This document shows, piece after piece, positions 51,610-59,070 of a stretch of DNA of 64,000 bases. The translations under genes and the position numbers were made by a program. Within the stretch, counting starts at the first letter, position 1. The number at the start of each line of letters is the position of its first letter. The DNA is taken from positions 32,001 through 96,000 of the IMG/VR virus record IMGVR_UViG_3300023276_001086. One strand, given 5' to 3'. This stretch comes from a virus. The notes under the pieces were generated by a model that had not been told where the DNA came from, did not search any database, and saw only the letters and a program-made list of their open reading frames with translations.

Positions 51610-52004
51610 GCCGCTGTCGGAGGCCTTACGACGTTCCCCTTCAGCTTCTTACGCAACCGGCTCCCCTGATCCCTACCGCCAACCTTACGCACGAGCATCG
51701 GCCCTCGAGAGGTCTCTGCCTTGAGGGCGTCGATTATCTCGTTGGTCTCCTTGGTCATCTCCTCCGACAAGAACGGAAGGAGCGCATCCCGGTACTTGTT
51801 GAACGACTCCTGAATCGTCTCCGATGACTCTTCCTGCGCTGTCCTGACCGCCTGGACGACGGTGTGCATCCCAAAAAGCTGAATGAGCTGACGACGCATT
51901 TGAATCATGAGGCAAAGCGCCTCGAGAACAGACCCCACCTTGGGCGGTTTGCTCAACAGATCGTACATCATGTTGGCCCGCGCCCAGCCAAGGGGAGTCT
52001 TCAA
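51585..52004 (-). CDS. Putative tail assembly chaperone, frameshift-extension (gpT-like) part
   Basis: In the -1 frame of 52001..53029 just past G GGA AAT; weak TTG start. Confidence 0.6.
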   Translation of the reverse strand: MKTPLGWARANMMYDLLSKPPKVGSVLEALCLMIQMRRQLIQLFGMHTVVQAVRTAQEESSETIQESFNKYRDALLPFLSEEMTKETNEIIDALKAETSRGPMLVRKVGGRDQGSRLRKKLKGNVVRPPTAAWGRKKRW

Positions 52005-53029
52005 CCATTTCCCAACTCTTCGGCAATCATGATGTTGCGAACCCGGTCATCGAACCAGAAGTAGTTGACCCGCATGTCGGCCAGAACCTGCACCGGGTAA
52101 CGGAGCACGCGCTTGAGCTTCTTCAGGAAGGCCTCGGAGTCAAAGTCGTCATCGACCAAGTGCGCTGGCATGATCTCACTACCAACAGCGTGAAGTCCGG
52201 CGGCCAGATTCATCAGCGCCAAACGCTCACGAAGATAGAGCTCCGATCCATCGAGCTTGCCGAGCTCCTGAAGGATGCCCTGATTCTCCGCACCAGACGT
52301 TGTGCGATACGTCACACTGAAACCGGCGCTGATCTTCACCGTCTGGCGTAGCTCACCGTGCAGAGCCAGATCCTCGATGCTCATGTCATCGAGAGCCTTC
52401 TCTATGCGAGCGCGCCGACGGGGGTTGTTGAACTTGTCAATGGCCGAGTCCATCTCCTGGTCCATGGAGCCCAGCCAAAGATTCTCATCTTCCAGGGGAG
52501 GAGTCTCTTTGGGCTCAGCGGCAGCATCAGGAGCCTCATCCTGTGCCGGTGGTGCCTGCGCAGCTTGTGCGGCCTGCTCCCTGTTCATGGCGTCGCCGAG
52601 GGCCTGCATATCCGACTTGATGGCTTCGACAGGCCTCGGGCTCTGTTGTTGAGGGACTCCTTGTTGTTGCTGACCCTGCTGCGCGAGCTGCTGCATGGAG
52701 ACGCCCTGGGGGCCTTGCTGCGGACCCGGCTGGGGGAAACCCTGCGGCTGCATCGGGATAGGCTGCGGAGGATAACCCGGCGGCGGGTAACCCTGCTGAG
52801 GATACTGAGGCATCCCAGGATGCGGGTACATGGGCTGCGGAGCCTGCGTCGGGTCATAGACCATACCAGGCTGCCCTTGCTGCATACCCGGCGGTATGGG
52901 GTGGCCCTGCTGCGCCTGTGGAGGCTGCGGACCGGGGCCCGGCATCGGCGGCGCACCACCGAGCGGTTGGTCGTGCCCCTTGGCCGCCTCAGTCGGGGTC
53001 GCCGGGGAAGACTTGTCGTCCGTGCTCAT
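52001..53029 (-). CDS. Putative tail assembly chaperone (gpG-like) with P/Q-rich N-terminus
   Basis: 342 aa; ends in slippery heptamer GGGAAAT one codon before the stop. Confidence 0.6.
   Translation of the reverse strand: MSTDDKSSPATPTEAAKGHDQPLGGAPPMPGPGPQPPQAQQGHPIPPGMQQGQPGMVYDPTQAPQPMYPHPGMPQYPQQGYPPPGYPPQPIPMQPQGFPQPGPQQGPQGVSMQQLAQQGQQQQGVPQQQSPRPVEAIKSDMQALGDAMNREQAAQAAQAPPAQDEAPDAAAEPKETPPLEDENLWLGSMDQEMDSAIDKFNNPRRRARIEKALDDMSIEDLALHGELRQTVKISAGFSVTYRTTSGAENQGILQELGKLDGSELYLRERLALMNLAAGLHAVGSEIMPAHLVDDDFDSEAFLKKLKRVLRYPVQVLADMRVNYFWFDDRVRNIMIAEELGNG
52007..52013 (-). other. -1 ribosomal frameshift slippery site G GGA AAT
   Basis: X XXY YYZ in the correct frame; the shift yields ...GKWLKTPLGW... 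Confidence 0.7.
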
Positions 53030-53228
53030 CCTCTACCACGCCTTTCACAAGAAAGTTCGTCAGAATCCGCTTCCTGAAATTGTTCAGAAAGGTGTGCTTC
53101 TGCACCGTCATGGGCATCAGTCCATTCTGTATGAGGTACACGTACATCCGCTCCACGTGGAACTTCAGCCCGTTCCCCTCCCAGATTTCCTCGACCTGCT
53201 CTTCCGTCAGAGCGCCCATGGCCACCAC
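52989..53228 (-). CDS. Hypothetical protein
   Basis: 79 aa, first gene of the minus-strand unit; two TTGACA hexamers upstream (53251-56, 53315-20). Confidence 0.55.
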   Translation of the reverse strand: MVAMGALTEEQVEEIWEGNGLKFHVERMYVYLIQNGLMPMTVQKHTFLNNFRKRILTNFLVKGVVEDEHGRQVFPGDPD

Positions 53229-53326
53229 CTTGCGGCATGAAGTCTCGAGCTGTCAAGAGAAATGTGCAGCAATATGCGGCACGTTTGCCTACACACACCC
53301 ACTGTGATTTTACCTGTCAATGAGGC

Positions 53327-53354
53327 GAAAAGCGTAACGAAATTAGGGGATAAG
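53327..53354 (+). promoter_or_regulatory. Phage promoter motif GAAA-N15-GGGGATAAG
   Basis: GGGGATAAGACTATTAG matches the 56087 copy at 16/17 positions. Confidence 0.7.
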
Positions 53355-53406
53355 ACTATTAGAAGTCGTGGGGACTTTACCTCTGACATTTACAAAAGGA
53401 AAAGCC

Positions 53407-55284
53407 GTGAACAACGAAGTCATGATCTTCTCAACCAGTGACATTTTTACCAACCTCCGTAACCGGCCCTCCGGCCGGATAGTGGCAGAGAATAGAGACG
53501 GCGTGTACGTCTCGACTGAGAAACTGGAAGCGGCCGTCAACAGCGGGTTCAGGTGCTATGTCGCGTCAACGCGCGAGCGGCTCACTGATGGAGATAGTTG
53601 GTGGGTTGAGATCGTCGGCCGGGACAACGTGTTCCTGGCCGAAGAGCCCGAGTATTATTGCGACTACGGTCCTTCTCAGGACCGGAACGCCTGCGTGAGC
53701 AAGGGGTACACCGACCTCGCGGCCCACCTCGGCGCCGCATGGCCGACGGACAAATGGGATGGCAGACCTGCGTTCTGGCCGAGCGGGATGCCCAAAGTCG
53801 CGGAAGCCCAAGGATGGACTATGGCCAAGTCCTGGGAAGGGCCGATAGAGCTACCGAAGGCGGTACGGCAGGTGGCCAAACACCTCCAAGTGTTTGCGAA
53901 GGCCACGGTGCTGCTAGTAGGCGGTGCCGTGGTAGACGCCCTCCAGGGACGAACGCCAAAGGATTGGGACCTCGAGGTGTACGGGGTGGCGCCCCCGGAC
54001 GTGATCGAGGTGCTCGATCGACACGGGTGGAAACCCCAGGCGGTGGGGAATGCGTTTGGGGTTGTAAAGCTCGCGCACGACGCCACGGATGGCGTCAGTA
54101 TTGATATCAGCTTCCCCAAAGCTGACAACACCCGAGATGGCGAGACGGACTTCGGTCCAGTCGACATCTACATGACACCCGCCGAGGCCGCCCTCCGGCG
54201 GGACCTCACCATCAACAGCCTCATGTACGACATCGAGGCTAGGAAGGTCATCGACAGCCACGGAGGGCTAGATGACCTACGTGACGGGGTGCTTCGGGCA
54301 ACGTCGCCCGAGCACTACGCACAAGACCCGATCCGCCCCCTGCGCGCAATGCAACTCGCGGCACGCAAGGTGCCAAACGTCGACCCCCTCACCATGGCGC
54401 TCCTCCGCTCAATGGCCACCGACGAGGCGTTCGCCTCCTTGGCCATCGAACGCGTGGGGGAGGAGTTCCACAAACTGATGATGGCTGAGAAGCCATCCAT
54501 CGGTCTCGAGGTACTCCGAGAATCGGGGTGGTTGCGCTTCTTCCCTGAACTCGAGGCACTGGTCGGGTGTCCGCAGAACCCAGACCACCACCCCGAGGGT
54601 CCGGTGTGGGACCACACGATGCTAGTGGTGGACGCCATGTCCTCCCTCGCGCGCACCGGCACCTCCTGGACCGAGGAGCCCCTCGATGGCCTGCGCCGGA
54701 AGGCCCTCATGTTCGCGGCGCTCTGCCACGACTTGGGGAAGCCAGTCACGGTGCAAGACGACTTGTCGTGCCCCAAGCATGACGTCGAGGGCGAAGAGTT
54801 GGTGCGCTCCTTCCTCGGACGCCTCACCAACGAAACGGTCCTGACCGAGGCGGTCGTCGCCCTGAGTCGAAACCACATGAGACCATTCGGTCTCGTGGAC
54901 GGCAAAGCTCGAGAGTCGCGCTGGGGGCGGCTCAAGGCCGACCTGGTCAAGCACCCCAAGCTGAAGAATGGCGGTCTGCCCAGCCTCGAAGATGCTGGCT
55001 ACCTCTCCCGAGCAGACTGGATGGGCTCCCGCCCAGTCGGCACCCGCTTCGCCAACGGCTCCACCACGGAGACGGACCGCGACCACCACGAGATTGCCGA
55101 GAGGTGCTGGGAGATGCACCGCGAGCTCGAGAAGGCCGAGCCCTTGGTCGGCGGGCGCGACCTCATCAAGGCCGGGGTCAAGCCCGGACCCCAGATGGGC
55201 AAGCTGGTGAAGGCGGCCTACGTCATCCAGCTAGACGAGCCCGAGCTCGCCCTCGAGGAGCTCATCGCTCGAGTGATGTCGTGA
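53407..55284 (+). CDS. cca: tRNA nucleotidyltransferase (CCA-adding/poly(A) polymerase family) with HD domain and N-terminal extension
   Basis: VGGAVVD..KDWDLEV, RRDLTINS, DPIRPLRA, HHPEG..WDH, HDLGKP; likely start GTG 53407 after AAGGA. Confidence 0.85.
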   Translation: MNNEVMIFSTSDIFTNLRNRPSGRIVAENRDGVYVSTEKLEAAVNSGFRCYVASTRERLTDGDSWWVEIVGRDNVFLAEEPEYYCDYGPSQDRNACVSKGYTDLAAHLGAAWPTDKWDGRPAFWPSGMPKVAEAQGWTMAKSWEGPIELPKAVRQVAKHLQVFAKATVLLVGGAVVDALQGRTPKDWDLEVYGVAPPDVIEVLDRHGWKPQAVGNAFGVVKLAHDATDGVSIDISFPKADNTRDGETDFGPVDIYMTPAEAALRRDLTINSLMYDIEARKVIDSHGGLDDLRDGVLRATSPEHYAQDPIRPLRAMQLAARKVPNVDPLTMALLRSMATDEAFASLAIERVGEEFHKLMMAEKPSIGLEVLRESGWLRFFPELEALVGCPQNPDHHPEGPVWDHTMLVVDAMSSLARTGTSWTEEPLDGLRRKALMFAALCHDLGKPVTVQDDLSCPKHDVEGEELVRSFLGRLTNETVLTEAVVALSRNHMRPFGLVDGKARESRWGRLKADLVKHPKLKNGGLPSLEDAGYLSRADWMGSRPVGTRFANGSTTETDRDHHEIAERCWEMHRELEKAEPLVGGRDLIKAGVKPGPQMGKLVKAAYVIQLDEPELALEELIARVMS

Positions 55285-55451
55285 GCCTCCCCGTTGAAGA
55301 GAAGAAGCGGCTGGGCTCTCACTGGGAAGCGGCGGAGGACCCCCGCCTCCGCGCACGCCGCAACCTCATGCGGGCCACCAGCTGGGTCGACGCCCCAGAG
55401 CCCCCCAAAGAAGAGGGGTACTACTGGCCACCAAGGAACCGCAGGAAATAA
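55281..55451 (+). CDS. Small 56-aa hypothetical protein
   Basis: GTGA overlap with the cca stop; followed by a terminator. Confidence 0.5.
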   Translation: MSLPVEEKKRLGSHWEAAEDPRLRARRNLMRATSWVDAPEPPKEEGYYWPPRNRRK

Positions 55452-55452
55452 A

Positions 55453-55493
55453 GCGCTGACACTCGTCAGGCTCCTGTGGTTCTTTCTCTAGCT
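55453..55493 (+). terminator. Hairpin (CTGAC/GTCAG) followed by TTCTCTAGCT
   Basis: End of the cca unit. Confidence 0.5.
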
Positions 55494-55499
55494 AGGTAT

Positions 55500-55527
55500 G
55501 CAAAAACACTAACAAATCCGTGATAGG
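55500..55527 (+). promoter_or_regulatory. Phage promoter motif GCAA-N15-CGTGATAGG
   Basis: Same geometry; upstream of the AAGGAGG RBS of 55564. Confidence 0.5.
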
Positions 55528-55563
55528 TAGTGTGCGGACTTTGGTAACTAACTAAGAAGGAGG

Positions 55564-56082
55564 ATGCGTGTGGCAGATAGAAGTTCCGAGGGAAGAGGAG
55601 ATCGAACCACTTCACGTGTGTCGGTTCTGCGGAGCCAACATCGAGACGATGGAGGACCTGAGACTGGGGATATGCCCGTGGTGCAAGACGAGGCACGATT
55701 TCTAGGGCACACCTGCACCACCAATCGCGGTGGTGTCTACCGAAGCTGGCCGGTCCTTGACCTATGGGAGCTGGCCAAAGACCTACACACCTTCGAGCTC
55801 CCACCCGAACAGCTCCCCGAGTTCGACTTCTACATCGACTCGGAGCCACGGTTCTTCTGGTGGTCCCGGGCTCGAGGGACCAAAGAACAGTTCACGATGC
55901 GTGATCTGGCAGACCACATCCGCCGGGTCAACGATGCCGACCTGAGCTTCCCCATCTTGTTGAACCCGGAAGGGGGTGTGATGGATGGGCTGCACCGGAT
56001 GATGAAGGCCCACATCCTGGGCGTGTGCGTGCGTGTTCAGCAGTTCGAGGAGTGGCCCCCAGAAGGTGCAAAACCGCAGTAA
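55564..56082 (+). CDS. ParB/Sulfiredoxin-like N-terminal domain protein
   Basis: ADLSFPILL..GGVMDGLHRMMKA; strong RBS. Confidence 0.7.
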   Translation: MRVADRSSEGRGDRTTSRVSVLRSQHRDDGGPETGDMPVVQDEARFLGHTCTTNRGGVYRSWPVLDLWELAKDLHTFELPPEQLPEFDFYIDSEPRFFWWSRARGTKEQFTMRDLADHIRRVNDADLSFPILLNPEGGVMDGLHRMMKAHILGVCVRVQQFEEWPPEGAKPQ

Positions 56083-56095
56083 AACTGGGGATAAG
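56068..56095 (+). promoter_or_regulatory. Phage promoter motif GCAA-N15-GGGGATAAG
   Basis: Upstream of the leader hairpin (56100-56135) and the tRNA-like RNA. Confidence 0.7.
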
Positions 56096-56135
56096 ACTAA
56101 TAGTGATCTTGGAGGTGCTACCTCCGAATCATTAT

Positions 56136-56314
56136 GGGGACCGCGAGTTCCGTCTTGTGAAACTGAAGGATGACCAATCCTAAAGTAACACCGTTGAAAG
56201 GCCTGGTAAGCCTGACACTGATGATGGATGGTACGCTCGAACGCCAAGGAGAAGGAGGGTTGATCGCCTCTGGACTTTGGTTGTTTACTGGTTCGACTCC
56301 AGTCGGTCCCCCCA
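56136..56314 (+). ncRNA. Expanded tRNA-like RNA (179 nt) with His-type G-1:C73 acceptor end
   Basis: GGGGACCG/CGGTCCCC plus CCA; T-arm ACTGG-TTCGACT-CCAGT; D-stem GTTC/GAAC; anticodon-stem equivalent CCAAGG/CTTTGG. Confidence 0.7.
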
Positions 56315-56982
56315 TGGCACACATGGACAACGAAGCCCGCAAGGGAAACGGCTCTAACACGACACCCTCAAACGCCGAGTTCGTCGATGAAACCGACGCG
56401 GCCGAAATATTCGCCAGCCACCTATCTCGCCTGGAGCGACAGGTCGAGACCCTCGTGGCCGACGCCGCAGACGCGGCAGAGAATGCCGAGGATGCGGCTA
56501 AATACGCCGAGCGCGAGCGGCGACTAGGCCTGAGCCATGTCGAGCGTCTCAGAGACGACGCCGACCAAGCCCGCTTCGCGCTCGCCGACGCCAACGCCGA
56601 CTACATCGGCGTGCGCACCGCACAATATGTGGACGCCTGCGCGGCGGCGGACAAAGCCGAAGCTGAGGCTGAGGCTCTCGCGCAGGCCACCATCGAAGAG
56701 TTCAATTCGATGGCGCCAGTAGAGCAGGCGAAGGCTCTGCTCGCCGAAAAGCTCGGCGATGATGCGGCTGACGCGATCCTGTTCGCACTCACTGCGAGGG
56801 AGCAGGAAAGGGCGGCAACTCGCCGCAAGAAGATTGCCACCGCCCTGAAGGTCGGGGCCTCGATGGCCGCGATGGGCGGGCTCTATGGAGGGATCATCGG
56901 GATGGCCGTCGAGGCCGCCAAGCCCAAGACCCGCAGGGCCAAGATCGCAACCAAGTTGGTGAATTGGGCCTTCGCCCGCTAG
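56314..56982 (+). CDS. Ala-rich coiled-coil protein with C-terminal TM segment
   Basis: ORF 56170..56982; protein-like composition begins at ATG 56314 or 56323; start uncertain, no clear RBS. Confidence 0.65.
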   Translation: MAHMDNEARKGNGSNTTPSNAEFVDETDAAEIFASHLSRLERQVETLVADAADAAENAEDAAKYAERERRLGLSHVERLRDDADQARFALADANADYIGVRTAQYVDACAAADKAEAEAEALAQATIEEFNSMAPVEQAKALLAEKLGDDAADAILFALTAREQERAATRRKKIATALKVGASMAAMGGLYGGIIGMAVEAAKPKTRRAKIATKLVNWAFAR

Positions 56983-56993
56983 CGCATCTCAAT

Positions 56994-57047
56994 GGGGGAA
57001 CCGGAATAGTCCGGTTCCCCTCCGACTGTGGAGAATTCTTTTTAGCT
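56994..57047 (+). terminator. Strong hairpin GGGGAACCGGA-ATAG-TCCGGTTCCCC followed by TTCTTTTTAGCT
   Basis: 11-bp perfect stem after the stop at 56982. Confidence 0.7.
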
Positions 57048-57057
57048 GATGACGTAT

Positions 57058-57380
57058 GATCTGAGAGGGCCCCCTCTCTGTGGCGGTTTTACTTCAACTA
57101 GGTAAGTCTAGTAAGACCCTCTAATTTTACTTTAGATAGAACTAGAGAGGATAATGAGGGGGTCTTACTAGATACCCCTAGTTGAAGTAAAACATCTAGA
57201 GAGAAAGAGCCTCTCTGGATCACCCAGTACAAATAGGAGGGTCTTACTAGACTTACCTAGTTGAAGTAAAACATCTAGAGAGAAAGAGCCTCTCTGGATC
57301 ACCCAGTACAAATAGGAGGGTCTTACTAGATACCCCTAGTTGAAGTAAAACACCTAGAGAGAAAGAGCCTCTCTGGATCA
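57058..57380. repeat. 79-bp tandem repeat x~2.8 plus one inverted copy; candidate replication origin/protein-binding array
   Basis: GGTCTTACTAGA starts at 57161, 57240 and 57319; inverted copy 57087-57121, degenerate to 57058; AT-rich and non-coding. Confidence 0.9.
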
Positions 57381-57418
57381 AACGGGCGTAACTAGCTAAG
57401 AAGATTGAGTAACGAATG

Positions 57419-57634
57419 TTACTCAACCTGGTCGTCCGACCGACGAACTACCAACAGCCCCTCGTGTTTGCAGAGGATGCAGCGCCCGTACTTGGACTTT
57501 TTGGTGGCGGGTCGAATGACATCGCCAAGGTTCAGGTTGCCGACATCCTCCATTGTCTGATCCTTGTTGCACGTCGGGCTCGTGCAGCGCAGGAGGTATT
57601 CAACTATCAGCGCCGTCTTTCGTTTCATCGTCAT
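57419..57634 (-). CDS. Small zinc-binding protein
   Basis: CTSPTC...CILC; GGAG RBS; followed by TTCTTAGCT on the minus strand (57394-57402). Confidence 0.55.
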   Translation of the reverse strand: MTMKRKTALIVEYLLRCTSPTCNKDQTMEDVGNLNLGDVIRPATKKSKYGRCILCKHEGLLVVRRSDDQVE

Positions 57635-57830
57635 CTCCAGTACCGAGCACCAGCTTGCCTTCGACAAGCCTACTCCTGACCGCCTCCTTCTGCACGGCCA
57701 GCAGCATCTGCATCTGCCTGGCGCTCTTGGCGATGATGTGGGTGGCAACCTTGTGGCAGTCATCACAGACCGGTACACCCTCCCACAACGCGACCTTGGG
57801 CTTGCCGCAGTTCATGCAAACACCGCTCAC
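57600..57830 (-). CDS. Small zinc-finger protein
   Basis: CMNC...CDDC; GTGA-coupled. Confidence 0.6.
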   Translation of the reverse strand: MSGVCMNCGKPKVALWEGVPVCDDCHKVATHIIAKSARQMQMLLAVQKEAVRSRLVEGKLVLGTGDDDETKDGADS

Positions 57831-58471
57831 GCCGCCCCCAACTTACTGAGAACCCTTCGGCACTCATCATCAAACCTATCGCAGTCGATGATGAGCCGAA
57901 CCGTACCAGAGGGGTCCTCGAGCAAGACAACGCTACTCCGCGCACCAGAACGGATATCCGCCCACCGTTCTAGCGCGGTACCGATTTGCCGAACCGGTAA
58001 CCTCATCCTGTTCAAGATGGTAGCGAGGAGCAGACGACGAACATCCTCCACGGACCACACTCGTCGAGTACCCTTCCCGTCCGCTTCCCCAATCGATGGC
58101 ACCACCACCAACGTCTCCGCCATGTGGATCATCATGCGTTGCGTAATCCCGAGGGCTTTCGAGATACGCACGCCACTCGCGGCAATCTCCCCCACCACCC
58201 CGCGGACAACCGCAACGGCTCTCCTCTTCTCTGACTTCCCCCTTTCTTCCTCCCTCATTCGCTCTATCGTTACCGCAGCCTTCTCTACGTCTCCGTAGAG
58301 GTACAGATCTATGCTCTCGACCTCTCCCGGTTTTGGGTTGACCCAACCGTTGAATATCTTGTTCAATCTGCCCACGTTCAGGTCGAGATCACGCGACATC
58401 TGATTCTGCCTGATACCATTCGCCGCTAGTTGAACCTTCCAGTCCGTGGCGCGCTTCATGTCTACCTTCAT
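57827..58471 (-). CDS. Transcription regulator: XRE-like HTH plus MerR-like HTH
   Basis: GIRQNQMSRDLDLNVGRLNKIFNGWVNP; ISKALGITQRMM..GTRRVWSVEDV. Confidence 0.7.
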   Translation of the reverse strand: MKVDMKRATDWKVQLAANGIRQNQMSRDLDLNVGRLNKIFNGWVNPKPGEVESIDLYLYGDVEKAAVTIERMREEERGKSEKRRAVAVVRGVVGEIAASGVRISKALGITQRMMIHMAETLVVVPSIGEADGKGTRRVWSVEDVRRLLLATILNRMRLPVRQIGTALERWADIRSGARSSVVLLEDPSGTVRLIIDCDRFDDECRRVLSKLGAA

Positions 58472-59070
58472 GCTCCCCTTATGGCCCGCTTGACGGGCGC
58501 GTAGGACCGTCGGTGCTCTGGACAGGGCCCGTGCTTCTTCAACTGGGCAAGGTGTACCACCGTTGGGTAGCCCTTGTGTGTCTCGAACCCGTAGGCTGGG
58601 TACGCCGCCGCCATCCCTGCTATCAGCTGGTCTCTCCAGACCTTAGCGATGATGGATGCTGCCCCAACAGCCTGCACCTTGGCGTCAGCCTTAGGCATGG
58701 CAGTCTGCTGAGCGGTAGGCACGGGGTGAGGCAACTTGGTCTTGCCGTCCACGACGACGTGGGCATCAGGGAACCGTTCGAGGCAGCACATGGCGCAGGA
58801 GACCATGCAGCCCCGAAGACACTGATTGATGCCGTGCTCGTCGATGAACTCGACCCCCGACTGGGCAATCACCCAGTGAAGACTGTGTTCGTGGATGGCG
58901 TGGATGACATTGACACGCTGATGGGGCTTGAGCGCCTTTGAGTCACCCACACCGTCCACGACCAGCTCCTCCGGGAAGACCACGGCAGCGACGACCACCG
59001 GACCCGCAATGGGCCCAAGCCCCACCTCATCTATGCCGATAATGTTCATCAGACCCAACCCCGCTGTCAC
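58468..59070 (-). CDS. rnhB: Ribonuclease HII
   Basis: GIDEVGLGPIAGPV, DSK, VDG, KAD..VGAASIIAKV.RD, HKGYPT, HRRSY; start may be 59049. Confidence 0.92.
   Translation of the reverse strand: MTAGLGLMNIIGIDEVGLGPIAGPVVVAAVVFPEELVVDGVGDSKALKPHQRVNVIHAIHEHSLHWVIAQSGVEFIDEHGINQCLRGCMVSCAMCCLERFPDAHVVVDGKTKLPHPVPTAQQTAMPKADAKVQAVGAASIIAKVWRDQLIAGMAAAYPAYGFETHKGYPTVVHLAQLKKHGPCPEHRRSYAPVKRAIRGA

Follow-up and report, generated by a model that had tools for sequence, protein, structure and literature searches.

A conserved tRNA-like RNA between a CCA-adding enzyme gene and a coiled-coil protein gene in an uncultured phage

The window analysed here, a 64-kb stretch of the 168-kb genome of an uncultured phage with few known relatives, carries nearly all of its long ORFs on the minus strand. 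The region 53368-56982 is the sole coding block on the plus strand, and this block is therefore inverted with respect to both neighbours, as the first-pass annotation had described. The conserved island encodes a CCA-adding enzyme with an HD domain, a small ORF, a zinc-ribbon ORF, an ORF with a putative ParB/sulfiredoxin (Srx) fold, a 179-nt tRNA-like RNA and a coiled-coil protein, and is followed by a terminator region (56994-57047, plus strand) with two hairpins, the first GC-rich and of 12 bp, and then TTCTTTTTAGCT. The earlier observation of the island and its components is confirmed as a whole: the enzyme is borne out by the Pfam families PolyA_pol, PolyA_pol_RNAbd and HD, the tRNA-like RNA is also conserved in relatives, and the proposed membrane coiled-coil protein does have a coiled coil and, by hydropathy, a C-terminal hydrophobic segment. 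The 56-residue ORF and the 45-residue CxxC...CxxC ORF, which also sit in the island, were absent from that list. No tRNA gene and no TROVE (Ro60) or RtcB gene were found in the 168-kb genome, in which the match to an RNA ligase is marginal.

The promoters of the cca and RNA units had been said to share a motif at 16 of 17 positions, and this is what is observed: GGGGATAAGACTAWTAG occurs exactly twice in the 64 kb, at 53346 and 56087, when 0.05 occurrences are expected by chance, and none of 100 shuffles has two matches. The cca-unit promoter (53327-53362, plus strand) consists of CGAAAA, a 12-nt spacer and GGGGATAAGACTATTAG, and the same two-part motif is found upstream of cca in the related loci L002-L005, as is the equivalent, GATCGTGGGGATTCTACCTGC, of the 5' leader hairpin of the cca transcript that is read from the sequence at 53365-53387 (plus strand). 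The promoter of the RNA/ORF unit (56069-56103, plus strand) consists of GCAAAA, a 12-nt spacer and GGGGATAAGACTAATAG, its equivalent preceding the RNA in L008, and a leader hairpin (56100-56135, plus strand; MFE fold) lies 5' of the tRNA-like RNA; like hairpins follow the other promoters of this class. The degenerate promoter of the zinc-ribbon/ParB-like unit (55500-55532, plus strand; GCAAAAA-N13-GTGATAGGTAGTG) has no match to the 17-mer within three mismatches, but it has the same two-part layout, and a canonical promoter, GCAAAAC...GGGATAAGAATACTGTGGACT, occupies the same relative position, after a conserved hairpin, in L003 (2650-2690) and L008 (298-340). The claim that all three units are headed by the same motif therefore holds for the promoter class and not for an identical sequence. 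Promoters of this class also precede at least three or four further genes in the 168-kb genome and are not private to the island.

The cca gene (53407-55284, plus strand) encodes a 625-residue class-II CCA-adding enzyme with an HD domain (PF01743, PF12627 and PF01966), which matches the tRNA nucleotidyltransferases of phrog_2244 (E 9e-53) and, as the best match of a PDB sequence search, 3WFO, with the body and the HD part covered and the HD motif aligned. The head, neck and HD domains are as in other phage class-II CCA-adding enzymes, but the window enzyme resides in a genome without a tRNA gene and begins with an additional domain (residues 1 to ~165; fold unknown), of which P0002 (39% identity) is the only relative found. 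This N-terminal extension is limited to the window phage and the L002 phage, whose RNAs are both of the large, homologous type. Several jumbo phage groups have CCA-adding enzymes, and the usual reading of phage CCA enzymes is tRNA repair (PMC7824862); the phage Cca/HD probably also repairs host tRNAs. In phage contigs with a cca gene that is 42-43% identical, no such RNA is found within 10 kb of it, and the neighbours include an RNA ligase in one contig and an AAA_33 kinase in another, which fits general tRNA repair.

The 56-residue ORF (55281-55451, plus strand) overlaps the cca stop codon and is called as a gene in L006/L007; it has a conserved C-terminal EG(Y/F)YWP motif, with homologous C termini in L003 and L008. 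Downstream of it is the hairpin GCGCTGACACTCGTCAGGCTCCTG (55453-55476, plus strand), which the genome has only once. L003 and L004 carry it unchanged and L008 with one mismatch, and it may serve in termination, 3'-end stabilisation or processing. The zinc-ribbon-like 45-residue ORF (55568-55705, plus strand) has no family match in the Pfam and PHROG searches. The neighbouring 134-residue ParB N-domain-like protein (55678-56082, plus strand) matches phrog_17560 (E 7e-9) and has homologues in L005 (58% identity) and P0123 (60%). Its earlier designation as ParB-like agrees with the fold, the first ~40 Foldseek matches of the AF2 model (pLDDT 71) being ParB N-domain or sulfiredoxin folds with the exception of three Srx-fold serine kinases (SbnI/SerK), but there is no Pfam match and the best Foldseek E value is 0.018, so that the predicted ParB/Srx fold is a weak assignment. 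The gene is facultative, being absent from L004 and L002/L008, and in a Logan contig from SRR23867505 it is present with no cca among the genes called upstream. The zinc-ribbon and ParB-like genes are taken as facultative passengers of the island.

The tRNA-like RNA (56136-56314, plus strand; fold z-score -2.6) has an architecture that is common to L008. An 8-bp acceptor helix (56136-56143 paired with 56304-56311) is combined with a T arm (56287-56303) and an encoded CCA (56312-56314), and the interior comprises a P2 helix, a long hairpin with a GACCA loop, a GGC-CUGGUAA-GCC (GG-loop) hairpin, which could be the analogue of a D arm and D loop, and a P3 hairpin holding the invariant GGAGG-GUUGAUCG-CCUCU. 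In the four independent sequences, all from one phage group, the 8-bp helix is stacked on a canonical 5-bp T arm; 52 of the 52 cells of the core helices are paired and 11 of the 13 pairs show compensatory changes, as compared with 31-50% pairing in slid controls and no shuffle as good among 500. When the sequences are scanned for a canonical T arm with, behind it, a 7-nt strand whose complement lies upstream, the 168-kb genome gives one match (0.3 expected per genome in random sequence), as does each locus with an ORF homologue (L004, L008, L009 and L010), with no match in L002, L003 or L005. The eighth pair of the helix, -1:73, is outside the scan requirements and is nevertheless formed in all four sequences (G:C, U.G, U:A and C:G). 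The window RNA is matched neither by Rfam, including the tRNA (RF00005) and tmRNA (RF00023) models, nor by ARAGORN.

The RNA varies in size from 53 to ~200 nt. Between the window and L008 the RNA has 80% nucleotide identity, with the same four-way architecture, further compensatory changes and invariant blocks of 17 and 24 nt in the large interior, whose conservation is far above that of the flanking proteins (only ~30% identity for the flanking ORF). Two phages add ~120 nt of further conserved domains, and the 53-nt L004 element consists of the acceptor helix, the GG-loop hairpin and the T arm only and lies inside the cca operon, without a promoter of its own, directly after the conserved hairpin. 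The acceptor helix is followed by CCG in L008 and L009, so CCA is not encoded there; the window and L004 do encode it, in an overlap with the ATG of the ORF. A coding origin was rejected for this stretch: between its conserved blocks the frame is broken by a 2-nt indel, and the ORF frame of L009 closes six codons upstream of the start. The non-coding part is a genuine mimic of the tRNA top half (the acceptor and T-arm half) and a new RNA.

The 222-residue coiled-coil protein (56314-56982, plus strand), whose hydrophobic segment is followed by a basic tail, has its start fixed by the N terminus M-x-H-x-D/S-T-E/K-A-R-K-G-N-G, conserved in L004, P0124 and P0125, and in the window its ATG shares the A of the CCA. 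Homologues of the RNA precede every retrievable homologue of this gene (L004, L008 and L009/L010), in every case 0-46 nt upstream of the start codon, and the downstream ORF (4/4), rather than the enzyme, is the most constant partner of the RNA. The ORFs of the window and L004 have no Shine-Dalgarno (SD) sequence; in L008 and L009 a hairpin and an SD sequence lie ahead of the start. The order cca-RNA-ORF is found in three phages (window, L004 and L002+L008, the last two contigs being joined by their common sample, a 26-nt overlap and a continuous reading frame), with cca 0.3-0.9 kb upstream of the RNA and 63-77% identical across the syntenic loci. The genes in between are swapped (the 56-residue, zinc-ribbon and ParB-like ORFs, a 212-residue ORF or a ~97-residue ORF), with both ends of the block retained throughout; the synteny looked for in relatives thus extends to cca, the RNA and the coiled-coil ORF and not to the ParB-like gene. 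Since these sequences are four in number and from one phage group, the synteny with cca may reflect shared ancestry and not function. Given that the genome has no tRNA gene, the RNA is the only phage-encoded candidate substrate found for Cca.

The first-pass annotation saw here a dedicated module, in which the RNA would be matured or repaired by the enzyme, possibly for counter-defence or translation takeover. In such a module the RNA would be a free-standing effector (for instance a decoy for a tRNA-targeting defence or a factor acting on the translation apparatus), and the N-extended Cca/HD would be specialised for its maturation or repair. This is in agreement with the synteny, with a CCA enzyme encoded in a genome without tRNA genes, with the unencoded CCA of two relatives, with the co-occurrence of the extension and the large RNA, and with an RNA interior conserved far above the flanking proteins. 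However, this co-occurrence amounts to one or two evolutionary events, L004 has cca yet only the minimal element, the RNA has no identifiable partner or target, and top-half minihelices are substrates for any CCA-adding enzyme. The ParB-like gene is facultative, the ORF is the more constant partner, the promoter class is shared, distant cca genes lie beside an RNA ligase or kinase without such an RNA, and the marginal RNA-ligase match of this genome fits general tRNA repair. From sequence comparison, a module of this kind, with or without a role in counter-defence, is possible, at a low probability. The enzyme and the RNA might also be neighbours only, the Cca/HD repairing host tRNA 3' ends, as phage CCA enzymes are commonly read (PMC7824862), next to an unrelated RNA/ORF unit in an inherited gene order. 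The close relationship of all the syntenic loci, the distant cca genes without the RNA and the use of the promoter class by unrelated genes point this way, and the persistence of both ends around freely swapped middle genes argues against it, as do the L008 and L009 genes without CCA, where a tRNA-like end of the RNA would require a CCA-adding enzyme; this reading is unlikely, although of appreciable weight.

It is improbable that the fold is an unprocessed cis leader, which would stay on the mRNA and boost or gate translation of the coiled-coil ORF, never being released and with Cca irrelevant to it. The fixed position just upstream of the start codon and the GG-loop hairpin, retained even in the 53-nt element, are consistent with such a leader, and the ORFs without an SD sequence need other means of recruiting ribosomes. 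tRNA and tRNA-like leaders do raise translation in vitro, 2- to 6.3-fold and dependent on the elbow residues G19/G20, but in those experiments an SD sequence was present downstream, and the loss of ACCA and the acceptor stem lowered translation by only 25% (PMC9142559). The perfect 8-bp helix, the CC(A/G) and the canonical T loop of the phage element are determinants for RNase P and CCA enzymes and superfluous for an enhancer, and neither yjdF nor any other Rfam model matches. A working adaptor, that is, an aminoacylated tRNA- or tmRNA-like molecule acting in translation and carrying, for instance, histidine by way of G-1:C73, is very improbable and already disfavoured. In the window copy CCA follows a G-1:C73 pair, the hallmark of bacterial tRNA-His, and the invariant CUGGUAA loop has the form of an anticodon loop; but the histidine-like pair was rejected as a conserved feature, being U.G, U:A and C:G in the relatives, there is no G3:U70, no 5-bp anticodon stem (the CUGGUAA stem has 3-4 bp) and no conserved tag frame, L004 lacks any interior, and the tRNA and tmRNA searches do not detect the RNA.

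The best explanation, held tentatively and at somewhat less than an even chance, is that the RNA is a tRNA-like leader or punctuation element, processed by the host and finished by a CCA-adding enzyme. We infer the processing steps, the completion of the CCA end and the way in which the ORF is translated as follows. The unit would be transcribed as leader hairpin, tRNA-like RNA and mRNA, host RNase P would cut at the 5' side of the helix and a tRNA 3'-end activity after it, and the ORF mRNA would be released. In the window and L004 the 5' end of this mRNA would be at or next to CC-AUG, making it nearly leaderless and without an SD sequence; the released mRNA of L008 and L009 would begin with the hairpin and then the SD sequence, so a leaderless mRNA is not family-wide. 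For RNase Z, a CCA that is already encoded generally acts as an anti-determinant, and the cut yielding the CC-AUG end is therefore uncertain. A stable tRNA-like RNA would also be released, its CCA end being completed or restored by a CCA-adding enzyme, for which the phage Cca/HD is the obvious candidate but need not be the sole finisher, as the host CCA enzyme could do the same. The minimal L004 element, inside the cca operon and without a promoter, fits punctuation. In Haloferax, RNase P and tRNase Z cleave transcripts bordered by tRNA-like elements (PMC4946936), and in M. smegmatis the Y RNA YrlA undergoes RNase P cleavage and acquires CCA in vivo (PMC4201824). The absence of such an RNA near the 42-43% identical cca genes speaks against the punctuation reading.

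The t-elements (those of plant mitochondria, the Haloferax element upstream of 5S rRNA and the mascRNA of MALAT1) are likewise non-decoding mimics of the acceptor and T arm, embedded in a longer transcript beside the end of another RNA. The phage element differs in that it lies in a DNA phage, its 8-bp helix is directly followed by CC(A/G), its CCA overlaps the start codon in two cases, ~120 nt of conserved extra domains are possible and a CCA-enzyme gene adjoins; its processing is proposed only. Bacterial and phage Y RNAs (YrlA), of which YrlA-like members are found in 22 phages (PMC4201824), are comparable in being non-coding and mimicking a canonical T arm and a D arm, and the L004 element gives a weak, sub-threshold match (21.7 bits, E 2.4) to the Deinococcus Y RNA model. 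In contrast, the ends of YrlA form a Ro60-binding stem and those of the phage RNA the acceptor helix, YrlA lies within 4 kb of a TROVE gene, which together with RtcB is lacking in the phage genome, and the window RNA is without an Rfam match. The yjdF riboswitch and grafted tRNA leaders also place a tRNA-shaped fold with a D-loop/T-loop elbow in a bacterial mRNA 5' leader and raise translation (PMC9142559), but the phage RNA has no sequence or model match to yjdF and no known ligand, is far more tRNA-like in its acceptor helix, CC tail and T loop, and has two members without an SD sequence. The tRNA-like structures of plant plus-strand RNA viruses are, like the phage RNA, viral mimics of the acceptor and T half with a CC(A) end and a non-canonical interior, and they are substrates of CCA-adding enzymes, as the phage RNA would be; they are aminoacylated 3' termini of RNA genomes, whereas the phage element is transcribed from a dsDNA genome, upstream of an ORF and without a conserved aminoacylation identity. 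A processing signal would not require invariant blocks as large as those that the window RNA shares with L008, a hint of some further function of this RNA in these phages.

The tRNA-like RNA (56136–56314, plus strand) folds with an 8-bp helix, formed by GGGGACCG with CGGUCCCC, and with a T arm (ACUGG-UUCGACU-CCAGU) that abuts the 3' strand of this helix and is followed, after that strand, by CCA. It directly precedes the coiled-coil ORF (56314–56982, plus strand; the start is set by the N-terminus conserved in three homologues), which encodes an Ala/Glu/Lys/Arg-rich protein with a C-terminal hydrophobic segment and a conserved basic tail. The same kind of RNA element is present upstream of every retrievable homologue of this ORF, having a length of 179 nt in the relative's contig locus L008 (367–545), of about 200 nt in L009 (322–523; L010 is the same sequence) and of 53 nt in L004 (2841–2893). 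When scanning for a T arm with a 7-bp acceptor, one match is obtained per ORF-bearing locus and one in the whole phage genome, and zero matches in L002, L003 and L005; the chance level is 0.3 matches per 168 kb of random sequence, counting both strands. For the 13 core pairs, all 52 cells of the four sequences are standard pairs, and compensatory changes occur in 11 of the 13. As pairing in 12 of these pairs is already demanded by the scan, the independent evidence lies in the sequence differences between homologous sites, in the eighth pair, which the scan did not ask for, and in the constant location ahead of the ORF.

At 80% nucleotide identity, the RNAs of the window and L008 both form a four-way junction, and additional compensatory changes between them are seen in an NACCA-capped hairpin, P3 and the T stem; the ORFs flanking them have only about 30% residue identity. 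A hairpin with a 3–4-bp stem and a 7-nt loop containing GG is found as GGC-CUGGUAA-GCC in the window and L008 and as GGC-ACACGGC-GCC in L004; it may be a D-arm analogue that touches the T loop, as its shape is the one expected of such an analogue.

The geometry of the junction between the RNA and the ORF differs among the loci. In the window, the A of the CCA that follows the helix begins the ATG, and in L004, where A-CCA follows the helix, this A is again common with the ATG; neither locus has a Shine-Dalgarno sequence. In L008 and L009, the helix is followed by CCG, a hairpin and a Shine-Dalgarno sequence, the start codons being a GTG 27 nt on and an ATG 46 nt on, respectively. The CCA is thus encoded only where it is part of the start codon, and the distance from the element to the ORF start is 0–46 nt in all four loci. 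That the RNA stretch is coding, as an N-terminal extension of the ORF, is ruled out by the frame evidence, since a 2-nt indel between conserved blocks of the window and L008 RNAs changes the frame, and since the ORF frame of L009 is closed six codons upstream of the start. In the window, this frame is open across most of the RNA (56167–56982; the true start is 56314), so that ORF finders call a false 270-aa protein (56170–56982) through the RNA, which is a lesson for annotation.

The RNA matches none of the known families. ARAGORN calls zero tRNA genes, both for the window and for the whole genome, a search with RF00005 at E <= 1 yields nothing (the control genomes all match), and neither RF00023 nor Rfam as a whole (E <= 1, searched on 52000–58500) matches the RNA; for L004, L008 and L009, Rfam at E <= 5 yields sub-threshold noise only. 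The many 'tRNAs with introns' reported by ARAGORN at relaxed thresholds are spurious and were discounted. A tmRNA is rejected from the lack of an Rfam match on the RNA, from position 3:70, which is G:C or C:G and not the G3:U70 of a tRNA-Ala-like domain, and from the lack of a conserved frame that could serve as a tag; the sole RF00023 match of the genome (8.1 bits) is away from the RNA. A Y RNA or YrlA is rejected as well, as no TROVE (PF05731) or RtcB is found in the genome and the window RNA has no Rfam match. The ends of Y RNA and YrlA form the Ro60-binding stem, and a TROVE gene is at most a few kb away, whereas here the ends of the RNA form the acceptor helix. An attP-type tRNA fragment is rejected because the paired 5' strand is conserved, and tRNA-His identity is not a family trait, G-1:C73 being present in the window only (the relatives have U.G, U:A and C:G). 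As in t-elements, an acceptor and T-arm mimic without a functional anticodon arm is found at the border of another RNA. A covariance model of the window and L008 RNAs (R1) recovers its two training sequences and an ordinary tRNA-like gene in L015, a locus of a more distant phage with a 43% identical cca; it does not reach L009 or L004. In L015 (17083–17236, minus strand), two tRNA-like genes adjoin, for which ARAGORN reports a 2-nt 'anticodon' in one and tRNA-His(ATG) in the other.

The cca gene (53407–55284, plus strand) encodes a tRNA nucleotidyltransferase of class II, whose head, neck and HD domains are identified by Pfam, PHROG and PDB sequence matches. The Pol-beta head (PF01743, E 5.6e-17) and the RNA-binding neck (PF12627, E 4.3e-8) are both past the cut-offs, phrog_2244 matches with E 9e-53, and the HD domain (PF01966) scores 30.3 bits at a cut-off of 22, its motif being intact ('alcHDlgkp' aligns with 'alfHDigkp' of 3WFO). 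Judged by sequence, the enzyme is of the class-II CCA-adding type with an HD domain (E. coli Cca type), and this is its predicted activity; the closest solved relatives, 3WFO and related entries, carry the deposition name 'Poly A polymerase'. The first ~165 residues form an extra N-terminal domain, which is common only to the homologue P0002 (39% identity in that part), has no protein-atlas match and is poorly modeled by AF2 (pLDDT 58.8). The catalytic part is 63–68% identical to those of the other four enzymes, which are mutually 75–77% identical, and all these loci thus belong to one phage group. About 1 kb past the window end, a 367-aa ORF of the same genome (locus L017) has a marginal RNA_ligase match (PF09414, 27.2 bits, right at the cut-off; genome 97046–97501, minus strand); together with Cca/HD, this RNA-ligase-like ORF could form an RNA-repair set. 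The genome has no TROVE, RtcB or AAA_33 match.

Downstream of cca are a 56-aa ORF and a 45-aa CxxC...CxxC ORF, followed by a 134-aa ParB-like ORF (55678–56082, plus strand), the latter being tentatively so named from a fold search of its AF2 model (pLDDT 71). This ORF has no Pfam match, and the first ~40 Foldseek matches are mostly ParB-N or sulfiredoxin, with weak scores (best E 0.018, TM 0.35–0.39). The ParB/Srx fold has a conserved G-x-H-R motif in the helix that follows its central strand, and DG(L/C)HR is invariant in three homologues of the ORF.

The first-pass annotation described a block inverted relative to its neighbours, and this is indeed the case, plus-strand coding being present only at 53368–56982, with long minus-strand ORFs on both sides. 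Its promoter motif, GGGGATAAGACTAWTAG, also holds, with two copies in the window (53346 and 56087) against 0.05 expected. Genome-wide, this motif belongs to a bipartite element, (G/C)AAAA, ~17 nt, GATAAGA, of which it makes up the downstream half; the element is followed by a short hairpin and, for protein genes, also by an AAGGAGG ribosome site. The proposal that three units are headed by the same motif stands for the cca and RNA units, but the copy of the third unit (55500–55532) is degraded; a canonical promoter is found in L003 and L008 at the same relative position after a conserved hairpin. Four relatives retain both the cca promoter and the leader hairpin behind it. Besides the island units, this promoter class heads at least three or four genes of the genome, with copies at 125417 and 126468 (minus strand) and at 159611 and 132320 (plus strand), each heading a gene; GTGGACTCGGG and a hairpin come next at 125417, 126468 and 159611, and the gene behind the 159611 promoter encodes a Cys-rich protein. 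The conserved 22–25-nt hairpin, GCGCTGACACTCGTCAGGCTCC(TG), is found at 55453–55476 in the window and at L003:2605–2630, L004:2800–2825 and L008:252–277. Three phages, with a protein identity of only 30–67%, have it without a single difference, a fourth phage has one mismatch, and the 168-kb genome contains one copy; possible roles are transcription termination for the phage polymerase, stabilisation of 3' ends and RNA processing.

The IMG/VR genome record, of which the window covers bases 32001–96000 (167,832 bp; completeness 95% by CheckV; GC ~59%), belongs to a poorly sampled lineage, as 8 of the 10 largest ORFs scanned have no PHROG match and the island has no nucleotide match (near mode) among deposited phages. 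Divergent from cca is a 79-aa gene (52989–53228, minus strand; protein 69–82% conserved), and between the two is an imperfect palindrome, GTGCAGCA-ATA-TGCGGCAC (53264–53282), which is likely an operator; its counterpart in L002–L005 is GTGCAGCA-N4-TGCTGCAC. Next is a 342-aa protein (52001–53029, minus strand) without a family match, whose homologues in L002–L004 have a low-complexity, strongly Gln/Pro-rich N-terminus. Directly beyond the island terminator, 79-bp repeats (57053–57389) occur as three tandem copies and one inverted copy, and a similar inverted GGTAAGAC.../...GTCTTA element is present at the same place in L008.

The gene order in the relatives bears on how these parts belong together. 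The window has cca, the 56-aa ORF, the conserved hairpin, a promoter, the Zn-ribbon ORF, the ParB-like ORF, a promoter, the RNA and the coiled-coil ORF. L002 and L008, which were joined (same run, 26-nt overlap, continuous frame), have an N-terminally extended cca, a ~97-aa ORF, the hairpin, a promoter, the RNA and the ORF; L004 has cca, a 212-aa ORF, the hairpin, the mini-RNA and the ORF. The suggested four-part synteny therefore survives for cca, RNA and ORF, but the ParB-like gene is absent from L002+L008 and L004. In L005, cca is followed by an HTH gene, a ParB-like gene and the contig end, and L009, from the same sample, has the RNA and the ORF. The ParB homologue P0123 (Logan contig, SRR23867505) has other neighbours altogether, and the genes called upstream of it include no cca; it is followed by a 33-aa ORF call, a ~270-nt gap, which has room for another structured RNA, and a 384-aa gene. 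Searches farther afield gave no match for the RNA in the phage database (nucleotide, distant mode), zero matches in IMG/VR with the Cca protein, the ORF, the ORF alignment, the T-arm/acceptor string or the conserved hairpin, and zero in JGI metagenome scans; two IMG/VR matches to invariant RNA blocks are inside unrelated coding sequence and reflect chance.

The conserved core is precisely the portion of tRNA by which RNase P, RNase Z and CCA-adding enzymes identify their substrates. This core, its constant location at the 5' border of an mRNA and the stripped L004 version within an operon suggest that the RNA is a tRNA-like leader or punctuation element, a reading that is put forward tentatively. 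This is in line with Haloferax transcripts flanked by tRNA-like elements, on which RNase P and tRNase Z make the cuts (PMC4946936), with M. smegmatis YrlA, a substrate of RNase P that acquires CCA in vivo (PMC4201824), and with tRNA-shaped leaders, which raise translation (PMC9142559). It is rather unlikely that the element is purely a cis-acting enhancer, as the core conserved here is the one seen by the processing enzymes. A working adaptor is very improbable: the acceptor and T arm are canonical, and these alone, a cloverleaf with a 5-bp anticodon stem not being formed.

As the CCA is missing in L008 and L009, no tRNA genes are present and the neighbourhood is conserved, the phage Cca is a reasonable candidate for the enzyme finishing the RNA. 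The large form of the RNA is accompanied by the enzyme's N-terminal extension; this is suggestive, but the events are very few and the relatives close. There is some chance, on the low side, that cca and the RNA with its ORF are unrelated neighbours: phage contigs with a 42–43% identical cca have no such RNA element within 10 kb, cca being beside an AAA_33 kinase in one and beside an RNA ligase in another, and the order of cca, RNA and ORF recurs in three phages of the present group. The dedicated enzyme–RNA module of the first-pass annotation, in which the CCA/HD enzyme would mature or repair the RNA, is improbable, and a counter-defence role for it is conjectural. Little likelihood is likewise given to an undescribed family of phage tRNA mimics (acceptor/T-arm elbow with accessory domains) with a co-evolving, N-terminally extended CCA/HD enzyme, where excision by tRNA-processing enzymes would generate a leaderless membrane-protein mRNA and the CCA-bearing RNA would have a trans-acting role, such as decoying a tRNA-directed host defence or binding to the translation machinery.

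Organelles, archaea, eukaryotic lncRNAs and one bacterial riboswitch already provide examples of tRNA-like processing signals and tRNA-shaped leaders. In literature searches, no such element was found reported in a DNA phage, and none with the CCA fused to a start codon. If the proposed processing is true, the RNA would be a new structured RNA family for Rfam and would provide a testable substrate for work on the enzyme's N-terminal domain, which is so far unexplained. It would also give a concrete reason for the presence of a CCA-adding enzyme in a phage without tRNA genes, and would mean that phages borrow the host tRNA-maturation machinery for mRNA punctuation and leaderless messages.
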